From Flavobacteriales bacterium (GTDB lineage: Bacteria; Bacteroidota; Bacteroidia; Flavobacteriales_F; PHOS-HE28), in NCBI GenBank assembly GCA_016699575.1, contig CP064979.1:2707982-2771981 (forward strand): a stretch of 64,000 nt of DNA, read 5' to 3'. The notes beneath the pieces are model-generated. The model worked only from the letters and a program-made list of their open reading frames with translations, made no database searches and had not been told where the DNA came from. Positions 15,415 through 34,003 of the stretch are shown here, one piece after another; position 1 is the first letter of the stretch, and every line of letters begins with the position of its first letter. Position numbers and translations under genes: made by a program.

Positions 15415-16659
15415 TCAGCGGAACAGCCAAGGAGCCGGATCCACCTTCACGAGGCCTTCGGGTGTGATCTTCCAGATCTCGATGTGCGCCACGCTCCGGC
15501 CGTCCTCCGTCAGCACGACACCCACATTGTCCTTTGTTTCCAGCTTCTGGCCCTTGGTCACGTTGGTGTCCCGAAGGTTGCTGTACACCGTGCGGTAGGC
15601 GCCATGGTTGAGCACCACGGCCTTGCCTGCGCCGGGGATGACGATGATGCTGCTGACCTCGCCCTTGAAAATGGCCCGCACCGTACTGCCCTTCTCGGTG
15701 CACACATCGATGCCGTTGTTCTCGATCACAATGCCTTTCAGGACCGGATGTGGTTGCTTTCCGAAGCCACTGCAGATGACGCCCTTCTCCACCGGCCACG
15801 GCAGTTTGCCGCGGTTCTTCTCGAAGTCGGCACCGAGCAGTTTGGCTTCCGGGGTCAGGGTATATGTGGTCTTCGTTGTTCCGGTGCTCGAGCCCTTGCC
15901 TTTGTCCTTGGTCGCACCGCTGCTCTTCGCCAGCTCTTCCTCGATGATCCTCTTGATCTTGCTGGCCAGTTCCAGACGCTGCTTCTCCTGCTTGCGCATC
16001 TGGTCCTTCAAGCGGCCCTCCTCTTTCTTCAACCCGGCCAGCGCGCTTTGCTGCTCGCTTTTGTCGGCGGTGAGCTTCTTCTTTTCGGCCAGCTCGGCGC
16101 CTAGCAGATCGGCCTTCTTCTGTTTCTGTCCTTTGAGCGCATCCACTTTGGTGGCCAGCGAGGCCTGGGTGGCGGTGATGAGCTTGGCTTGGTTGGCGCG
16201 TTGTTCGGCCATCAGGTTCAGATAACGGCTACGGCGGAAGGCCTGCGCGAAGTTTTCCGCAGCGAACAAGTAGCTGAGCCGGTCCATGGCGTTGCGGTTG
16301 CGGTAGGCGAAGAGCACCATGCGCGAGTAGTCCTCTTTCAACTGCACCATGTCGCGTTCCAATGATCGGATCACCGCTTCATCGTCGCGGATCTGTTCTT
16401 CCACCTTGCTCAGTTCGCCGTTCATGGTGGCGATGAGTTCATTGCGTTGGCCTATCTGCGCTTCAAGCAGTTGCAGTTGTTCCTGTGTGAGGCGTTGCTC
16501 TTTTCTGGCTTGGTCGATCAGCGATGTGGTGGTCTTGATCTGCTTGTCCAGCGCGTCGCGCTTTTTCTCCAGGTCTTTCTTGCTCTGGGCCGTGGAGGCC
16601 AATGGCAGAAGCAGGAGCAGGAGGATGGGGATCGCACGAACGCTGCTTCGGAGCGTCAT
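15415..16659 (-). CDS. murein hydrolase activator-like M23 peptidase with long coiled-coil (EnvC/NlpD-like)
   Basis: Signal peptide [25 protein letters not shown]; ~250-aa coiled-coil rich in KQ/EL repeats; C-terminal LytM/M23 domain ([47 protein letters not shown]). The track ORF extends to 16953, but that extension overlaps DUF4292 and consists of palindromic repeat A, so the start was set at the internal Met (cat at 16657-16659). Confidence 0.8.
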
Positions 16660-16790
16660 CGCGAGCGAGGCTTTGCGAGCGAAGCGATCCAGCGGTGAGG
16701 GCTCGGCGTAGGCTGGATCGCTTCGGCCCGGACTGCTTCGTCGCAAAGCCTTCTCGCAGTGACGGGCCTCGCGATGACGAGGGCCCACAG
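16654..16790. repeat. intergenic palindromic repeat element, family A copy 1 (nested hairpin; motifs GTCATCGCGAG / CGAAGCGATCCAGC and their reverse complements)
   Basis: Left arm cgtcatcgcgagcgaggctttgcgagcgaagcgatccagc pairs with right arm gctggatcgcttcg...ctcgcgatgacg. A second copy is at 28417-28500. Confidence 0.7.
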
Positions 16791-22269: not shown

Positions 22270-24675
22270 TTACACCACCTTCAACTTCGCGAACCGCAAC
22301 AGCAACTGCTTCTGTCCCGCGCTCGGGAAGAAGATGGTCGCCTTGAGGTCGGGGTGGCGGCCTTCGATGCTGAGCACTTTGCCTTTGCCGAACCGTTCGT
22401 GCTCCACTTGTGCGCCCACTTCCAATCCGTCCACGGTGGTGAAACCTTCGGCAGCCGGCGTCTTGTCGGCGTCCACGCGCTTCAGGCCGCGTTTGGCCAC
22501 CATGGCGGGCGTGGGCGTGCTGGGCTGCGGTGGTGCGACAGGTCGTGATGGCGCCGGTGTGCGTGCTGGGCGTTCGTCGTGCTGGAACCCCGCGCTACGA
22601 CCGAAGGCACCGGTGCGGCTGGCCCAAGGCGGCGTGCGCTCGGTGCTGAAGGAGCGCTCGCTGAAGTTGGGCAGCTTCAGGTACTTGGCGTCGATCTCCT
22701 CAATGAAGCGGCTCGGCTCTGCGGCGGTGAGGTTGCCCCAGCGGTAGCGGCTAACGGCATAGCTGAGCGTGGCGCGCGTGCGTGCTCGCGTGAGCGCCAC
22801 ATAGAACAGACGGCGCTCTTCCTCCAGCTCCTGCCGGCTGCTCATGCTCATTTGGTTCGGGAAGAGTTCTTCCTCCAGACCCACCACATAGACGTAAGGG
22901 AACTCCAGGCCTTTCGCGCTGTGGATCGTCATCAGGCTCACGCGGTCGTTGTCGTTCGGGTCGTCGGTCTTGTCGGCATCGGTGAGCAAGGCGACGTCGA
23001 TGAGGAAGTCGGGCAGCGTGCGTGGCACATCGGCGTCTTCATTGGCGTCACTGAACTCCTTGATACCGTTCAGCAATTCCTGGATGTTCTCGTAGCGGCT
23101 GATCCCTTCCGGCGTGCGGTCAGCATAGAACTCCTTCAGCATGCCACTGGTGCGCGCAATGTGTTCCGCCAAGGCATAAGCGCTGTGACTTTCCAGCATC
23201 GTGCGGAAGCTCTGGATCATCGTCACGAAGTCGCCCAGCGCTTTGCGTGTGCCGCCGTGGATGCCGGTGGCGCCTTGCGATAGCATGCCGCCATCGCCGC
23301 GCTCCGGGAAGGCGGTGAGCAGGTCCCAGATGCTGCACTTCGCTTCGCTGCTCTGCACCACCAATTTCTCGATGGTGGTCTGGCCGATGCCGCGCACGGG
23401 GTAGTTGATGATGCGCTTCAGCGCCTCTTCGTCCTGCGGATTGCAGGTGAGCCGGAAGTACGCCAGCAGGTCCTTGATCTCCTTGCGCTGGTAGAAGCTG
23501 AGGCCGCCGTAGATGCGGTAGGGGATGTTGAGCTTGCGCAGCCCTTCCTCCATACTGCGGCTCTGTGCGTTGGTGCGGTACAGGATGGCGAAGCTGCGGT
23601 TGGGCAGCTGCTTCTGCATCTTGTGCTCGAAGATGTCGTGCGCCACGAAGCTGCCTTCCTCGTTGTCGCTGGGCGCGCGGTGCACGTGGATCAGGTCGCC
23701 CTGCTCGTTCTGCGTCCAGATGGTTTTCTTGATCTGCTCCTTGTTGTGGTCGATGAGGCTGTTGGCCGCGCCCACGATGGTGCCGGTGCTGCGGTAGTTC
23801 TGCTCGAGCTTGAAGAGCTGGTGGTCCGGGTAGTCCTTCCGGAAGTTGAGGATGTTCTGGATGTTGGCGCCGCGGAACGCGTAGATGCTCTGGCTGTCGT
23901 CGCCCACCACGGTGATGTTCTCGTGGCGCGCGGCGAGCGTCTTCACGATGTTGTACTGCACCAGGTTGGTGTCCTGGTACTCGTCCACCAGGATGTACTG
24001 GAAACGCTGCTGGTACTTGAGCATCGCTTCCGGGTGGTCGCGGAAGAGCAGTGCCGTGTTGTAGAGCAGGTCGTCGAAATCCATGGCGCCTGCGCGGAAG
24101 CATCGCTCGGCGTAGGTGCGATAGATCGCGGCCATCTGCGGCCGGCCCGTGCTCGTGTCCTGGGTGATCAGCTCGGCATCGTTGGCGTATTCCACCGGGC
24201 CGATGAGGTTGTTCTTGCAGATGCTGATGCGGCCGTGCACCTGGCTGGGCTTGTACATCTTGTCGTCCAGCTGCATCTCCTTCACGATGCTCCTGATCAA
24301 GCTGCGACTGTCGTCGGTGTCGTAGATGGTGAAGTTGCTCGGGTAGCCGAGCTTTTCCGCTTCGCTGCGGAGGATGCGGGCGAACACGCTGTGGAAGGTG
24401 CCCATCCACAGGTTGCGCGCTTCGGTGTTGAGGCCGGGCACATCGGCAAGCAGGTGTGCGATGCGCTCCTTCATTTCGCGCGCCGCCTTGTTGGTGAAGG
24501 TGAGTGCCAGGATGCGGAAGGGATCCACTTCCTTGGCCGCCATAAGGTGCGCAATGCGTACGGTGAGGACCTTCGTTTTGCCGGAGCCCGCACCCGCGAT
24601 CACCATCATGGGGCCCTCGGTGGCCGATGCGGCGTTGTACTGGGCTTCGTTGAGGCCCTTCAGATAGCTGGTCAC
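22270..24675 (-). CDS. ATP-dependent DNA helicase, UvrD/PcrA/Rep family
   Basis: 801 aa: Walker A in MMVIAGAGSGKTKVLTVRIAHL, helicase motifs (LALTFTNKAAREM, VDEYQDTN, ITVVGDDSQSIYAFRGA, LEQNYRST...), and a Pro-rich C-terminal tail. Confidence 0.9.
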   Translation of the reverse strand: MTSYLKGLNEAQYNAASATEGPMMVIAGAGSGKTKVLTVRIAHLMAAKEVDPFRILALTFTNKAAREMKERIAHLLADVPGLNTEARNLWMGTFHSVFARILRSEAEKLGYPSNFTIYDTDDSRSLIRSIVKEMQLDDKMYKPSQVHGRISICKNNLIGPVEYANDAELITQDTSTGRPQMAAIYRTYAERCFRAGAMDFDDLLYNTALLFRDHPEAMLKYQQRFQYILVDEYQDTNLVQYNIVKTLAARHENITVVGDDSQSIYAFRGANIQNILNFRKDYPDHQLFKLEQNYRSTGTIVGAANSLIDHNKEQIKKTIWTQNEQGDLIHVHRAPSDNEEGSFVAHDIFEHKMQKQLPNRSFAILYRTNAQSRSMEEGLRKLNIPYRIYGGLSFYQRKEIKDLLAYFRLTCNPQDEEALKRIINYPVRGIGQTTIEKLVVQSSEAKCSIWDLLTAFPERGDGGMLSQGATGIHGGTRKALGDFVTMIQSFRTMLESHSAYALAEHIARTSGMLKEFYADRTPEGISRYENIQELLNGIKEFSDANEDADVPRTLPDFLIDVALLTDADKTDDPNDNDRVSLMTIHSAKGLEFPYVYVVGLEEELFPNQMSMSSRQELEEERRLFYVALTRARTRATLSYAVSRYRWGNLTAAEPSRFIEEIDAKYLKLPNFSERSFSTERTPPWASRTGAFGRSAGFQHDERPARTPAPSRPVAPPQPSTPTPAMVAKRGLKRVDADKTPAAEGFTTVDGLEVGAQVEHERFGKGKVLSIEGRHPDLKATIFFPSAGQKQLLLRFAKLKVV

Positions 24676-24760
24676 GGCGCCGAAAATACCCCTCGCCCGC
24701 GCTCGGGATGACGGCCGAAGGGGTGGGTCAGTGAGGGTTTTGCACGATCGGGCAAGAAGG

Positions 24761-25237
24761 CTACGGACCAGGAGCCCCGCGTTTTCGAACGAGCTCCTGA
24801 ACGTCGAGCAGGTCTTTCGGTCGGGCCGCCCGAAGCTTGCTGTTCACGAGATCGGGGTAGCTGATGACCCGGTATCGCACAACGGGCAGATCAGCGAGTT
24901 CGCCCAGTTCGCCGCGTTCCCAGGCCTCATCGAAAGAGCAACCCGGGTCGAACCGTGTGATCAGCTCAAGTGTCAGGTCCGGAGAGAGCTTGATCGAGAC
25001 GTTCTGGTCCGCCGAGCGCACTGCATCGGGCCAGCGATCAACTTCATAGCCACACGCCGTCAAGGCTTGGCGCAACCGTTCCAGGTTTTCCGGTGAGTGG
25101 TCGATCCATAAGTCCACATCGGCGGACAAGCGCTGGTATCCGTGGAAGTTCACGGCGCCACCGCCCACGAGAAGGAACCGGACCCCGTGCTTTTCAGCAG
25201 CGGAAAGGAACTCCCGCAATTGCTCACCGAACAGCAT
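24761..25237 (-). CDS. nucleotidyltransferase-fold protein (minimal NTase, GG...D.D motif)
   Basis: MLFGEQLREFLSAAEKHGVRFLLVGGGAVNFHGYQRLSADVDLWID carries the G[GS]x9-13Dx[DE] polymerase-beta-type NTase signature. Start set at an internal Met; it overlaps the upstream small ORF by 14 nt. Confidence 0.55.
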   Translation of the reverse strand: MLFGEQLREFLSAAEKHGVRFLLVGGGAVNFHGYQRLSADVDLWIDHSPENLERLRQALTACGYEVDRWPDAVRSADQNVSIKLSPDLTLELITRFDPGCSFDEAWERGELGELADLPVVRYRVISYPDLVNSKLRAARPKDLLDVQELVRKRGAPGP

Positions 25238-25427
25238 CCGCCTGCTTGGTAATGACGAAATTGCCTTGGTCGTCCTTTCGCGCAGGTGCACCGAACCCGC
25301 TGCCCAGACACCGGATGAACCAATCGAACCGCTGGGACGGTGTCAGCGCCATGAACCGCTCCTCGCGTTCCTTGTTGCTTTCCTCCTTCTTGGTGAAGGT
25401 GATCCGCTTGTCCATCGCCAGTGCCAA
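25224..25427 (-). CDS. small hypothetical protein (67 aa) overlapping the NTase gene start
   Basis: ORF-track entry only. It sits 15 nt downstream of the membrane-protein stop and overlaps the NTase start. Coding status uncertain. Confidence 0.3.
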   Translation of the reverse strand: MALAMDKRITFTKKEESNKEREERFMALTPSQRFDWFIRCLGSGFGAPARKDDQGNFVITKQADAVR

Positions 25428-25442
25428 AGTACCGCCCGAGGA

Positions 25443-27155
25443 TCACTTCCGCTCCGGCAGGCTGGTGAGCCTCGCCATCAACGACCGGAAGAAGCCGTGG
25501 CCCACGAAGAGGTAGAGCGCCATGCCGCCCCAGAGGAAGATCTGCATGATGGTGAAGACCTTTTCGCGGAGCAGTTCGGCCTCTGCCCGCAGGGCCGGCA
25601 GCCGCAGGTCGAAGCCATTGTAGTTCTCGATCTCGTTGATCTTCTTCCACAACGCGTCCACGCCGAAAATGTCGAACTCTTCTTCCAAGATCATCAGCGT
25701 GGTGAAGAGGATGAACGGTGCAATGCAATTGGCGATGATGGTCATCACTGCGCGACTGGTCCGGTAGGCCTTCAACCTGAACACGAACGGAGCTTGGGCC
25801 AAGAGGAAGATGCCAATGAAATAGTGGCCGTAAAGGAGGATGTCATCCGGCCTCACACCATCGTAGCCGTAGTCGTTCCGCCATGTAACGAGGAATGCTA
25901 CGCACACGAGGACGATGGGAGTGAGGAAGCACACCACGAAGCCGATGAGGAAGGGTTGCCAGTAGATGTTCTTGAAGATGCCGATGAGCAAGGCCAGACA
26001 GAAGCTCATGATCACCACCGTATAGAACATGGCCCAGAACCTGGCGAACGAATAGTCCATGGTCTTCGCTTCCCAGAGGCGTTCGATCTGCCGATCGCAA
26101 TCGAAGACCATGCTGGAGGTTTGCTTGCGCTCGTTGAACTGGAGCAGCGCACTGTCCACGGTGCACCCGCTCGTATCGCGGCGGTAGCTGTCGGCGATGG
26201 CGAGCACGTTCGCGATGCGCTCCCGATCGATCATGTCCGGCGCGTCCAACTGTTTCACGTACCGGGCTTCCAGCAGGCTGTCGCTCAGGAAAGGCACACG
26301 TTCCACCTCATGCCTGCCGCGCAGGTCGTAGGTGAAGGTCCATCCCTTCTCCGGCGAGAACGGACCATGGGCCACGAAGTAGAGCGGGAAGTTGCGCTCG
26401 ATGCTGTCCATCTTGGCCAGGTAGCGCTTGGCCTTGTGCGGGTCGCGGGTGTCCGAACTTCCGAATGCCGCCGCATTGTAGGCCTCCTTGTATTCGTCGT
26501 AGAGCCCCTGGAGCGATTCCTCCTTTTCGGGGTCGCGTTCGAGCCGCTTGTTGTATTCGTCCAAGCTGCGGAAGTAGGCGTGCGATCCCGTGCCACTATA
26601 CCATTCTCCATCTTCGATCAGATAGTTGATCTCATCTGGATCCATCCCTTCCAAGGTGATGTTCGACAGGTGGAGCGCGCGCCCATCCCCTGTCAGGAAC
26701 ATGAAGGCCTCCTCGTTCAGGTCGTCCACCTCCTGCACGAACTGCTCATCGCTGATGATGCGGTCGATGCGCCAGGACAGCGTGAGCGCGATGTTGTACG
26801 GCAGCGACCAGATGAGGACAATGCTCAGCAGATGCACCATGAACTCGCCCACTTCAGCGAAGGGCTCGCGGAGACCATTGCGGCGCTCGAGGGTGAACAG
26901 CACCACCTTGTATACCCAGAAGGCACAGTAGAAGATGGCGGGTACCGTCATCCAGCCGAAGAACTCCTCGGGATCGGGGAAGCTCCGCTTGTCCACGTGC
27001 AGGAGCATGCCGAAAACGAACACGAGCACGTTCAGCAGCAGTATGAACCAGATGTGGTAATGGAAGCGCGTGGCCCACAAGCGCGGTTTGCTCTGCTGCA
27101 GGTACAGGTCGTACCGCTGCAAAGCGCCGGGGATGAGCTTGCGCAACCAGTTCAT
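25443..27155 (-). CDS. polytopic membrane protein (~8 TM with ~240-aa soluble insert), partner of the upstream ABC ATPase
   Basis: Start MNWLRKLIPGALQRY... overlaps the ABC stop (ATGA). Three N-terminal TM helices, a soluble region (aa ~160-400), then five C-terminal TM helices. No confident family assignment by eye. Confidence 0.75.
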   Translation of the reverse strand: MNWLRKLIPGALQRYDLYLQQSKPRLWATRFHYHIWFILLLNVLVFVFGMLLHVDKRSFPDPEEFFGWMTVPAIFYCAFWVYKVVLFTLERRNGLREPFAEVGEFMVHLLSIVLIWSLPYNIALTLSWRIDRIISDEQFVQEVDDLNEEAFMFLTGDGRALHLSNITLEGMDPDEINYLIEDGEWYSGTGSHAYFRSLDEYNKRLERDPEKEESLQGLYDEYKEAYNAAAFGSSDTRDPHKAKRYLAKMDSIERNFPLYFVAHGPFSPEKGWTFTYDLRGRHEVERVPFLSDSLLEARYVKQLDAPDMIDRERIANVLAIADSYRRDTSGCTVDSALLQFNERKQTSSMVFDCDRQIERLWEAKTMDYSFARFWAMFYTVVIMSFCLALLIGIFKNIYWQPFLIGFVVCFLTPIVLVCVAFLVTWRNDYGYDGVRPDDILLYGHYFIGIFLLAQAPFVFRLKAYRTSRAVMTIIANCIAPFILFTTLMILEEEFDIFGVDALWKKINEIENYNGFDLRLPALRAEAELLREKVFTIMQIFLWGGMALYLFVGHGFFRSLMARLTSLPERK

Positions 27156-28357
27156 GTGTCCTGATGGAAGAGTTTGCGCGTGCTGGTGCTGATATCGCGG
27201 AAGTAGCTCACCTCCAATCCGGCATCGCCCATGGCTTTCACCACGTGCTTGGCGGTGCATTCGCGCGGTGTGGTCAGTCGGAATAGCAATCCGGTGTCGT
27301 CGAGGTGAAGGATGCGTTCGGTGCCCATGGCGTGCACCAAGGCGCTGCGGTCGAATTCGCCGTTGATCTCAAAGACGTTGCTCGCGCGGTCCACATCGAA
27401 ACTGGCCACGGCCCCGCTGAACATCGGCCGGCCGTTCTTGAGGAAGATGATGTTGTCGGCCACGGCCTCGATCTCGTGCAACTGCTGGCTGCTGAGGATG
27501 ACACTGATGGGGTTGCGGCGCGAGGCGGCGAGGAATTTCAGGTCCTGCAGGAAGAGCTGCTGCGCTTGCAGGTCGAGGTTCGCGATGGGCTCATCGAGCA
27601 CCAGGATGCGCGGGCGCCATACCACCATCTTGGCCAGTTCGAAGCGCAGTTTGTAGCCGCTGCTCAACTGGCTCCAGCGTAGGTGCTGGAAGCGTGTGAG
27701 GCCAAGGCGGTGCAGCGTGTACATCACGCGGTCCTCGTTCTCCTCGCCGGTCACCCCGTGCACGGCGGCCATGAAGCGCAGGTTCTGCATCAGCGTGCCG
27801 TACCAACGCACGCTACGCTGCGGGATCCACGCTATGCCTTGTTTGATGAGGTACGGGTCGTTGCCGAGCGTGGGGTAGGAGACGCTGCCTTCGTTGTGGT
27901 CCAGCAGCCCGGCCACTTGGCGCAAGAGCGTGGTCTTGCCATTGCCGTTCTCGCCCACCAGCCCGGTGATCTCGCCAATGCGCAGGTCGAGGTCGATGGG
28001 GCCGAGCTGGAACTTGTGGCCGCGCGAGCTGAACCGTTTGGTGAGCCCTTGAGCACTGAACACCGTAGTGCGATCAGGCAGTGCAGCATCATCGTGCAAA
28101 GCCGAGGCCCGCGCAACGATCGTGTGCATGAGCTGCTGGGCGCGCTCCGCGTACGAGGCACCTACGTTGCCGCTCAGTTCGGCCGCACCGAGGTCGCGAC
28201 TGATGTTGTAATCGGCCCGGAGCGCCATGGCCGTGCGGCGCAGGTCGTGCAGCGCAGGGTACTCGTCGCACAGGTCCATGAGCCGGCGCGTGGCCAGGCT
28301 CAGGTCGCTGCCATGCACGAGCGCTTGCAGTTCGTTCAGGCGGTGCTGGGCGCTCAT
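27152..28357 (-). CDS. ABC transporter ATP-binding protein with ~95-aa N-terminal helical extension
   Basis: Walker A GENGNGKTT, Q-loop, signature LSSGYKLRFELAKM, Walker B ILVLDEP, H-loop. The N-terminal 95 aa has no ABC similarity. Confidence 0.85.
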   Translation of the reverse strand: MSAQHRLNELQALVHGSDLSLATRRLMDLCDEYPALHDLRRTAMALRADYNISRDLGAAELSGNVGASYAERAQQLMHTIVARASALHDDAALPDRTTVFSAQGLTKRFSSRGHKFQLGPIDLDLRIGEITGLVGENGNGKTTLLRQVAGLLDHNEGSVSYPTLGNDPYLIKQGIAWIPQRSVRWYGTLMQNLRFMAAVHGVTGEENEDRVMYTLHRLGLTRFQHLRWSQLSSGYKLRFELAKMVVWRPRILVLDEPIANLDLQAQQLFLQDLKFLAASRRNPISVILSSQQLHEIEAVADNIIFLKNGRPMFSGAVASFDVDRASNVFEINGEFDRSALVHAMGTERILHLDDTGLLFRLTTPRECTAKHVVKAMGDAGLEVSYFRDISTSTRKLFHQDT

Positions 28358-28416: not shown

Positions 28417-28500
28417 GTGGATCGCTTCGGTCGCAACGCCGCCCTCGCGATGACGGTTGGGCTACCGTCATCGCGAGCCTTCTGAGGCGAAGCGATCCAG
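28417..28500. repeat. intergenic palindromic repeat element, family A copy 2
   Basis: ggatcgcttcg...cctcgcgatgacgg-ttgggctac-ccgtcatcgcgag...cgaagcgatcc: nested hairpin sharing the GTCATCGCGAG and CGAAGCGATCC motifs with 16654-16790. Confidence 0.7.
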
Positions 28501-28567: not shown

Positions 28568-28801
28568 TCAGGCTTTTTTGGCCGCCTTTTTCGCGGCCTT
28601 CTTGGCCTTCGGTGCTGCCTTGGGCTTGGCAGGTGCTGCGGCCTTCACGGCTGCTGCCACACGCTTCGCCGTGGCGGCTTTGCGCTTGGCGCGGCTGTTC
28701 TTCTTGGGTGCCTTGCCTTGGCCGGCAGGTGCGCTGGCGATGCGCTTGATCTTCCTTTTCTGGCCGCTCACAGCGGCTTTCTTGTGGCTCTTCTTTACCA
28801 T
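28568..28801 (-). CDS. histone H1-like Lys/Ala-rich DNA-binding protein
   Basis: 77 aa, AKKAAKKA / KPKAAPKAKK repeats typical of bacterial histone-H1-like (Hc1/AlgP-tail-like) proteins. Composition-based call. Confidence 0.55.
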   Translation of the reverse strand: MVKKSHKKAAVSGQKRKIKRIASAPAGQGKAPKKNSRAKRKAATAKRVAAAVKAAAPAKPKAAPKAKKAAKKAAKKA

Positions 28802-32995: not shown

Positions 32996-34003
32996 CTTCA
33001 GTTTGTAGATGCGTTCGATGATCTCCACCACCTTCAGTCCTTCCAGGGCGTTGGTGGTGAGCGTGGTTCGGCCTTTCAGCGTGTCCACCACGTTCTGGAT
33101 GATGTAGCTGTGGTTGTTCGCACTTCCCTTGTAAGCGCCATAGTCGTTGGCCGGGTTGGTGGGTGCGAGCTCGGGCATCGTGTAGTCCTTGATGTGGCAG
33201 TGCTCCACCTGGTCCATGTACTGCCCGCCGATCTTCACGCTGCCCTTGCTGCCGATGACGGTGAGGCTGCTCTCGAGGTTCTTGTCCCACACCGCGGTGC
33301 TGTAGTTGATGCACCCCATGCCGCCGTTCACGAAGTTGAATTGCACCAGGCCGCTGTCCTCGAAGTCGGTGAGGTCCTTGTGGTTGAAGTCGGCGAACTT
33401 GGCTTGGATGTCGGTGATGTCGCCGAACAGCCAGTACATGATGTCGATGAAGTGGCTGAACTGCGTGAAGAGCGTTCCGCCGTCGAGGTCCTTGGAGCCT
33501 TTCCACCCGCCCTTCTTGTAGTAGCGTTCGTCGCGGTTCCAATAGCAGTTCACCTGCACCATGAAGATCTCGCCGAGGTGCTTCCCGTCGATGACGCTCT
33601 TGATCCAGGCGCTGGGTGGCGAGTAGCGGTTCTGCATCACACCGAAGACCGTCAGGTGCATCTGCAGCGCTTTGTACAGCACTTCCTCGCACTCCTGCTT
33701 GCTCAGGCCCATGGGCTTTTCGCACACCACATGCTTGCCCGCACCTAGCGCTTTCAAGCTTTGTTGCGCATGCAGACCGTTGGGCGTGCACACGTTCACC
33801 ACCTCGATGCCCGGCACTTCGCGCAGCATCGTGTCCAAGTCGTTGAACACCGGCACGCCGAAGTCCTGCACGCCGGCTTCCGCTGCGGTACGCACATCGC
33901 ACAACGCGACCAGTTCCGCCTCGGCATGGCGCTTCACCATCTCCGCATGGCGCTTGCCGATGTGGCCGCAACCGACCACGGCGAATTTGATCCGGTCGCT
34001 CAT
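32993..34003 (-). CDS. Gfo/Idh/MocA-family NAD-dependent oxidoreductase (WbpB-like UDP-sugar 3-dehydrogenase candidate)
   Basis: IKFAVVGCGHIGKRHAEM Rossmann N-terminus, EKPMGLS motif, GFO_IDH_MocA C-terminal domain. Location in a Wbp-type cluster. Confidence 0.85.
   Translation of the reverse strand: MSDRIKFAVVGCGHIGKRHAEMVKRHAEAELVALCDVRTAAEAGVQDFGVPVFNDLDTMLREVPGIEVVNVCTPNGLHAQQSLKALGAGKHVVCEKPMGLSKQECEEVLYKALQMHLTVFGVMQNRYSPPSAWIKSVIDGKHLGEIFMVQVNCYWNRDERYYKKGGWKGSKDLDGGTLFTQFSHFIDIMYWLFGDITDIQAKFADFNHKDLTDFEDSGLVQFNFVNGGMGCINYSTAVWDKNLESSLTVIGSKGSVKIGGQYMDQVEHCHIKDYTMPELAPTNPANDYGAYKGSANNHSYIIQNVVDTLKGRTTLTTNALEGLKVVEIIERIYKLK

Follow-up and report, generated by a model that had tools for sequence, protein, structure and literature searches.

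An ABC ATPase with an uncatalogued eight-helix membrane partner and an inserted nucleotidyltransferase cassette: probably two independent units at one Flavobacteriales locus

ATP-binding cassette (ABC) systems are classed by the fold of their membrane domain, and every fold added so far has come with a mechanism of its own. Two described kinds serve as reference points here: systems in which the ATPase (DrrA, CcmA, GldA, NosF, Rv1218c, or the nucleotide-binding domains of ABCA proteins) is associated with an ABC-2 permease, and type VII systems (MacB, FtsX, HrtB, BceB), built on a unit of four transmembrane (TM) helices with an extracytoplasmic domain between TM1 and TM2. Among toxin–antitoxin (TA) systems, the type IV AbiE pair joins the nucleotidyltransferase (NTase) AbiEii to AbiEi, a winged-helix protein of roughly 200–300 amino acids (aa), and the type VII HEPN-MNT pair places a minimal NTase gene beside a small partner gene. 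Here we analyze four genes, encoding an ABC-type ATPase, a membrane protein, a small open reading frame (ORF), and a minimal NTase, in a 64,000-nucleotide (nt) stretch of a Flavobacteriales bacterium (GenBank assembly GCA_016699575.1, contig CP064979.1, positions 2,707,982 to 2,771,981), hereafter the window. As a preliminary description of this DNA had placed them, the ORF map shows all four genes co-directional, on the minus strand, between the helicase gene uvrD and a copy of a palindrome (Table 1). We conclude, with a probability of roughly two in three, that they make up two independent units: an ABC ATPase/membrane protein pair (unit A) and an inserted TA-like cassette of small ORF and NTase (unit B).

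Related loci keep the ABC pair and differ in what lies beside it. A scan of one genome per Genome Taxonomy Database (GTDB) species with the membrane protein yielded 19 loci, all in Flavobacteriales metagenome-assembled genomes (MAGs), whose gene content we established by tblastn with the window proteins. Wherever a locus extends far enough (17 complete, one cut by a contig end), the ATPase gene lies directly 5′ of the membrane gene; uvrD lies 3′ of the membrane gene in 18/18 loci extending past it, and the ATGA junction between ATPase and membrane genes is shared by 16/16 loci examined. The same searches found the small ORF and NTase in 0/19 loci; the spacer separating the membrane gene from uvrD is covered in 17 of them. 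Identities range from 68 to 88% for uvrD, 64 to 82% for the ATPase, and 37 to 66% for the membrane protein, and they fall in step: loci with uvrD at 87–88% have the ATPase at 78–82% and the membrane protein at 62–66%, while those with uvrD at 68–71% have them at 64–69% and 37–44%, respectively. This concordance with uvrD argues that the ABC pair has been inherited vertically. uvrD itself adjoins the pair only within the window's Flavobacteriales clade and is not adjacent in distant relatives.

The cassette lies in an insertion with clear boundaries. In relatives that lack it, the membrane gene and uvrD are separated by TGATCGTGTAAAACCC; the window has 695 nt placed into this spacer right after GATC, and the spacer then resumes as GATCGTGCAAAACCC, with GATC present on both sides of the cassette (25441–25444 and 24746–24749). 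The same insertion is present in the closest relative (L027/L028), whose membrane protein is 87% identical. The cassette is thus an insertion beside the ABC pair in the window's lineage only. Elsewhere the spacer measures ~60 nt or is filled by unrelated secreted proteins; it is a variable spot, which in the window holds the NTase cassette. Two such secreted proteins are of 443 aa (L004, 5491–6822) and 474 aa (L007, 9802–11226). Short promoter-like motifs also occur near the cassette. One, TACTTTGG at 25424–25431, spans the TTG start of the small ORF and lies 8 nt 5′ of its ATG, and another, TATTTTCG at 24681–24688, stands just before uvrD, where relatives have TACTTTCG; each of the three differs at a single position from TAnnTTTG, the Bacteroidota −7 promoter consensus. 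The cassette could have a promoter of its own. A sigma-70 promoter scan, whose model does not cover Bacteroidota promoters, found nothing.

Unit A appears to be a vertically inherited two-gene operon, widespread in Bacteroidota, that encodes an ABC ATPase and a dedicated partner with eight TM helices. The two genes meet at CATGAAC, the membrane gene starting with ATG at 27155–27153 and the ATPase gene ending with TGA at 27154–27152. In the ATPase, Pfam ABC_tran (PF00005) matches aa 120–259 only (5.7e-22) and the ABC models of NCBIfam begin at ~aa 94–118, so that the first ~95 aa are without ABC similarity. The catalytic core carries Walker A (GENGNGKTT), a Q-loop (Q180), a signature (LSSGYK), Walker B (ILVLDEP), and a D-loop (ANLD); Walker A, the Q-loop, and Walker B with its catalytic Glu are all intact, and the signature is a variant. 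These motifs are invariant in 16 close homologs (mean column identity 76%) and six distant ones, all of which also share SSGYKLRF, DEP(I/L)ANLD, (S/T)SQ(Q/H)LHE, and a C-terminal YFRDISxST. The histidine of the H-loop is absent: Q291 (in SSQQLHE), invariant in close and distant homologs alike, aligns with the switch His of ABCA4 and ABCA7 (STHH, TSHS). Swapping this histidine in ABC proteins strongly slows hydrolysis, and both ATP sites of a homodimer of the window ATPase would carry Gln in its place.

The N-terminal extension of the ATPase is a real, conserved domain specific to this family. It has invariant residues at E9, R25, D28, R47, Y50, and N51 (motif LRAxYN), and the extension, the motifs, and the C-terminal YFRDISTST tail are conserved across loci of 31–62% GC. 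No Pfam model scored above threshold on this domain in the window protein, its homologs, or the family consensus, a profile search found no sequence relative in the PDB, and a word-indexed homology search with the domain alone returned a single fragment.

Beyond this domain, the ATPase resembles those that work with ABC-2-type permeases. Its best partial matches in NCBIfam are PQQ_ABC_ATP, GldA, CcmA, and DrrA, and its best sequence matches in the PDB are domains of ABCA4/7/3/1; the best matches to ABC-2-associated ATPases fall on aa 100–320, and Walker A, the Q-loop, Walker B with the catalytic Glu, and a C-terminal domain after the core are common ground. However, the window protein scores far below every family cut-off (e.g., 110 vs. 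302 bits) and differs from all of these in its extra 95-aa N-terminal domain, in having LSSGYK rather than LSGGQ, and in its Gln for the switch His. It falls in a distinct subfamily.

The membrane protein has an arrangement of its own. Hydropathy places TM segments at ~33–55, 69–89, 102–127, 372–395, 400–424, 439–458, 466–492, and 533–552, leaving an acidic soluble stretch at 128–368 (241 aa; 30 K/R, 49 D/E), and an AlphaFold model built from 26 sequences (pLDDT, the predicted local distance difference test, 74; pTM, the predicted template modeling score, 0.64) has helices that match. From the distribution of Lys and Arg, both termini are predicted to be cytoplasmic and the insert periplasmic. 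The N-terminal module consists of a conserved amphipathic N-terminus, TM1–TM3, and a cytoplasmic TM2–TM3 loop (E90, R92, R96), and is the best-conserved part in the wider family, whose distant members match best at profile positions 1–155. The insert varies in length across the family around conserved H192, DSI (250–252), DSLLE (292–296), and AK (363–364). The C-terminal module comprises TM4–TM8, with an invariant cytoplasmic turn FKNIYWQP between TM4 and TM5, a periplasmic loop, helical and ~40 aa long, that connects TM7 to TM8, and a conserved tail ALPERK. The preliminary description had anticipated much of this, including an ATPase with a ~95-aa N-terminal part lacking ABC similarity, the ATGA overlap, a 3 TM + ~240-aa insert + 5 TM layout, and a partner unlike ABC-2, FtsX, or other permeases, and each of these points holds in our analyses.

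The window's own protein, annotated as hypothetical in a MAG contig, is a member of a large uncatalogued family. A word-indexed search with it returned 27 clusters, all from Flavobacteriales MAGs, and a second one with a diverse alignment (A3) reached the same close clade only, owing to the word filter. An exhaustive profile search against 1.84 billion representatives recovered 634 clusters at E ≤ 1e-3 and 324 at E ≤ 1e-10, with lengths from ~380 to 730 aa (mostly ~410–580); the three-helix module at the N-terminus and the helices at the C-terminus are conserved. Pfam-A and NCBIfam gave no match for the window protein or for 39 diverse relatives (0/40 in all). Foldseek with the full model, of moderate confidence, found nothing in the PDB at E ≤ 1e-3, a family profile against PDB sequences gave nothing significant, and no known fold was matched by the insert.

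Distant members of the family keep the pairing and little else. The ABC gene (377–431 aa) stands directly 5′ of the membrane gene in 7/8 distant members, the two genes overlapping by 1–17 nt or lying ~5 nt apart, while other neighbors are unrelated. We place these contigs in Bacteroidota because of nearby genes with type IX secretion system (T9SS) tails and SusC/SusD genes. In one subclade (L022, 4767–10328; L034, 3722–9250) the order is a divergent htrA, the ATPase, the membrane protein, an Omp85/POTRA protein, and a zinc-ribbon protein (365–381 aa). This arrangement may be a larger envelope operon, and the linkage to htrA and Omp85 fits an envelope role for unit A.

Most likely, the ATPase and the membrane protein would form a 2:2 complex, an ABC machine directed at the envelope. 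When ATP drives the ATPase dimer to close, cytoplasmic elements of the partner (the N-terminal amphipathic segment, the TM2–TM3 loop, the FKNIYWQP turn, and the ALPERK tail) would relay this movement to its TM bundle and periplasmic domain, and the machine would export or extract a hydrophobic or lipid-linked envelope component, or do mechanical work in the periplasm. The Gln at the switch position predicts slow, tightly controlled hydrolysis, and the N-terminal domain of the ATPase is a candidate regulatory or docking module. We favor an exporter or extractor, given the lineage of the ATPase (ABCA lipid exporters, DrrA, GldA, CcmA), together with the Omp85/htrA linkage in one subclade. Tentatively, one may go further: the eight-TM protein may represent a hitherto undescribed class of ABC membrane domain, with a fold unlike the described types and confined to Bacteroidota, which together with a Gln-switch ATPase and its own N-terminal control domain would form an unrecognized envelope machine. 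This last proposal, which we hold to be possible rather than probable, draws on negative fold searches with models of moderate confidence.

Other readings of unit A would make it more familiar. The membrane protein could be an ABC-2 (type V) permease so divergent that sequence and fold searches miss it, with two additional helices at its N-terminus and an extensive insert outside the cytoplasm, in which case unit A would be an ordinary exporter. The nearest ATPase families (PQQ-system, GldA, CcmA, DrrA, ABCA domains) all partner ABC-2-type permeases, the C-terminal domain of the ATPase aligns with that of Rv1218c (aa 101–380), and we see parallels in layout: a conserved amphipathic N-terminus, a conserved cytoplasmic loop following helix two, and helices outside the cytoplasm that precede the final TM. 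Yet none of the tests run identifies the partner as an ABC-2 permease. For example, hhalign against one ABC-2 permease gave a probability of 0.1, and no six-TM fold superposing on the membrane domains of Wzm, ABCG, or ABCA was found in the membrane protein. We regard a divergent ABC-2 permease as unlikely. The preliminary description had expected an ordinary transporter beside an unrelated gene to reveal itself through a profile assignment of the membrane protein to ABC-2 or FtsX, together with a small-ORF/NTase pair that is not conserved; no such assignment was obtained, and the pair, found in 0/19 related loci, is present in the closest relative and recurs on an unrelated contig.

The main alternative to an exporter or extractor is a purely mechanical role like that of MacB. 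Unit A would then be a MacB/FtsX-like (type VII) mechanotransducer, in which ATP moves the periplasmic domain and no substrate crosses the inner membrane. Unlike type VII proteins, however, the membrane protein has no FtsX profile match, its insert has no known fold and lies between TM3 and TM4 of eight TM helices rather than between TM1 and TM2 of four, and its ATPase falls outside the MacB/LolD/FtsE lineage. We hold a type VII assignment to be unlikely.

A conflict or defense role for unit A, with the N-terminal domain of the ATPase as an effector-associated adaptor, is very unlikely. It draws on matches to effector-associated domains in two distant homologs (EAD11 at E 8e-4, 19.7 bits vs. 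a cut-off of 26, in one; EAD7 at E 0.022 in the other) and on PADLOC matches to mad3 and mad8. However, the EAD matches are confined to 2/8 sequences tested and lie below the gathering cut-off, and neither the window ATPase nor the family consensus nor a further member matched EAD7 or EAD11; we therefore dropped this identity for the domain. PADLOC, run on all four proteins, returned only matches to generic ATPase segments (mad3, mad8, AriA, GajA, and others) and to AbiEii, leaving the membrane protein and the small ORF without a match. Vertical inheritance in step with uvrD and neighborhoods without recurring defense genes, including those of the distant ABC pairs, where no conserved defense partner was found, also speak against defense, so the conflict reading offered for the ABC pair in the preliminary description is not supported.

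Preferring an envelope-directed ABC machine for unit A, we turn to unit B, which is most likely a mobile TA-like cassette. The TTG of the small ORF lies 15 nt past the stop of the membrane gene, and the NTase starts 14 nt ahead of the small ORF stop; gene callers in public assemblies choose a 63-aa version of the small ORF that begins at an ATG four codons inward. The NTase carries GGGAVNFHGYQRLSADVDLWID, with GG-x11-DVD, a minimal motif of the Pol-beta type. The protein scores above the cut-off of the Pfam AbiEii profile (PF08843; 28.6 vs. 22.5 bits), covering only positions 3–171 of 238, matches DUF6036 at the borderline (PF19502; 23.7 bits, cut-off 23.6), and is hit by the PADLOC AbiEii model at 5.8e-6. 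A profile search with the NTase against PDB sequences found nothing significant. Its relatives score best with DUF6036 (47.4 bits for one in Acidisarcina, 26.4 bits for a homolog on metagenome contig L031 that falls below the AbiEii cut-off). Relatives are located on plasmids from Spirosoma, haloarchaea, and Acidisarcina, in the last case between IS6 copies.

The small ORF and the NTase appear to travel together. When metagenomes were scanned with the small ORF, L031 (42% GC) proved to hold a 58-aa homolog (47% identity, 1e-15) that overlaps through ATGA a 157-aa NTase homolog (48% identity, 1e-47). Contig L030 (8–393) holds a decaying cassette, in which the small ORF is intact, but an internal deletion has fused the N- and C-terminal parts of the NTase, leaving 70 aa. 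Because the overlapping pair recurs in L031 and a decayed copy exists in L030, we infer that small ORF and NTase form a conserved, mobile two-gene unit. Both genes of the cassette evolve under purifying selection. Compared with the closest relative, the NTase has 23 nt differences, 16 of them at third codon positions, and the small ORF has 10 nt changes that lead to only 3 aa changes, all conservative. The preliminary description had singled out a 67-aa ORF 15 nt downstream of the membrane gene, overlapping the NTase by 14 nt, and had suggested that the two form a separate TA-like unit; the ORF map agrees with the former, and recurrence of the overlapping pair in an unrelated contig strengthens the latter. 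What falls is its proposal of a single functional module, an exporter or sensor acting with the NTase pair, which we consider highly improbable: for all the tight co-directional packing, the 15-nt gap, and the overlapping junctions that recommend it, the NTase pair was found in 0/19 related loci, 17 of them covering the spacer, whereas those reaching upstream all retain the ABC pair, it lies within the GATC-flanked insertion at a spot where other relatives hold unrelated genes, and it occurs in L030 and L031 without any ABC pair.

Among described TA systems, unit B shares features with several and matches none. As in AbiE, an NTase that passes the AbiEii profile is encoded in a bicistronic, overlapping arrangement with its partner gene upstream. 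By analogy with AbiEii-type enzymes, the NTase would be the toxin, which the upstream small protein would neutralize or regulate. In contrast to AbiE, the window NTase has only 158 aa, its L031 homolog fits DUF6036 better, and the partner, of 63–67 aa, belongs to no family in Pfam, NCBIfam, PADLOC, or PHROGs. Because this partner is not AbiEi-like, unit B is not AbiE in the strict sense. The pairing of a minimal NTase gene with a small partner gene also recalls HEPN-MNT, but the small ORF has no HEPN family match and no histidine anywhere in its sequence, which excludes the HEPN Rx4-6H motif, and we rejected that identity. DUF6036 NTases are close as well, given the borderline match of the window protein, the clear matches of its plasmid relatives, and the annotation of the haloarchaeal plasmid relatives as DUF6036. 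This family is without a described function, and we found no mention of it in the literature searched. As far as the tools used show, a conserved small upstream partner is undescribed for DUF6036.

Several observations weigh against this account of two units. Contact between the ATPase and the membrane protein is deduced from the coupling of their genes, because the membrane protein resembles no known ABC membrane-domain fold; its lack of detectable similarity to such folds comes from models of moderate confidence (pLDDT 74–76), so the negatives are not conclusive. The direction of transport, and transport at all, are things we infer for unit A. One distant contig (L033, 5001–7633) has two tandem membrane paralogs (420 and 446 aa) and no adjacent ATPase gene. 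For unit B, the small protein has no recognizable fold or family. Distant NTases in L025 and L026 have a small ORF at the same upstream position, one with the same 14-nt overlap; however, these ORFs are no more similar to the small ORF of the window than shuffled sequences are, and we therefore do not claim homology. As a separate observation on L033, an ordinary ABC-2 permease gene lies ~2.4 kb 5′ of the tandem paralogs.

Table 1. Features of the four-gene locus and its flanks, in window coordinates
Feature	Position	Strand	Remarks
ABC-type ATPase gene	27152..28357	-	401 aa
ATPase N-terminal extension, aa 1–95	28073..28357	-	family-specific domain
ATGA stop/start overlap, ATPase gene/membrane gene	27152..27155	-	read in sequence
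Membrane protein gene	25443..27155	-	570 aa, 8 predicted TM helices
Membrane protein N-terminal module, aa 1–127	26775..27155	-	from alignment
Membrane protein soluble acidic insert, ~240 aa, between TM3 and TM4	26052..26774	-	predicted periplasmic
Membrane protein C-terminal module, aa 369–570	25446..26051	-	from alignment, hydropathy, and model
Inserted cassette, 695 nt, small ORF + NTase	24746..25440	-	from comparison with cassette-free relatives
Small ORF	25224..25427	-	67 aa from TTG, or 63 aa from ATG at 25415
Minimal NTase gene	24761..25237	-	158 aa; DUF6036/AbiEii/DUF2204 clan
Palindrome	28444..28477		perfect 14-nt arms, 6-nt loop; 5′ of ATPase gene
uvrD/pcrA helicase gene	22270..24675	-	context

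The flanks of the locus hold further features. The palindrome belongs to a family of short repeats, of which it is a single copy, and lies outside both units. The core of this family, CTCGCGATGACGGT, has 6 matches in the window at ≤2 mismatches vs. 0.96 expected by chance, with copies at 28444–28477, 16652–16665, 16768–16781, 24702–24715, and 33249–33262; one copy is thus 5′ of the ATPase gene, and a degenerate one lies within the spacer between the NTase and uvrD. The family looks like a repetitive extragenic palindromic (REP)-like intergenic element. Just 5′ of the ATPase gene, 28568–28801 (minus strand) encodes a Lys/Ala-rich, histone H1-like protein of 77 aa, which is kept at the same position in the close relatives L001, L002, L010, L027, and L028. 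In L006 (13223–13354), a second, isolated copy of the last 44 UvrD residues, a Tudor-like C-terminus (77% identity), stands ~1 kb 3′ of the full uvrD.

Together, our results describe unit A as an uncatalogued family pair within a known kind of ABC system and unit B as a minimal-NTase, TA-like kind with an undescribed small partner. The partner family of unit A comprises at least 634 sequence clusters that lack a Pfam or NCBIfam model and a detectable structural relative, and it is tied to an ATPase whose catalytic site is unusual and which carries an additional domain. The cassette adds a conserved small partner to the unstudied minimal NTases of DUF6036 and so provides a concrete candidate TA pair. 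The ABC pair has been kept across Bacteroidota genomes of very different base composition, and if it acts on the envelope, it could bear on how Bacteroidota build or maintain their outer layers, for which several transport steps still await assignment.

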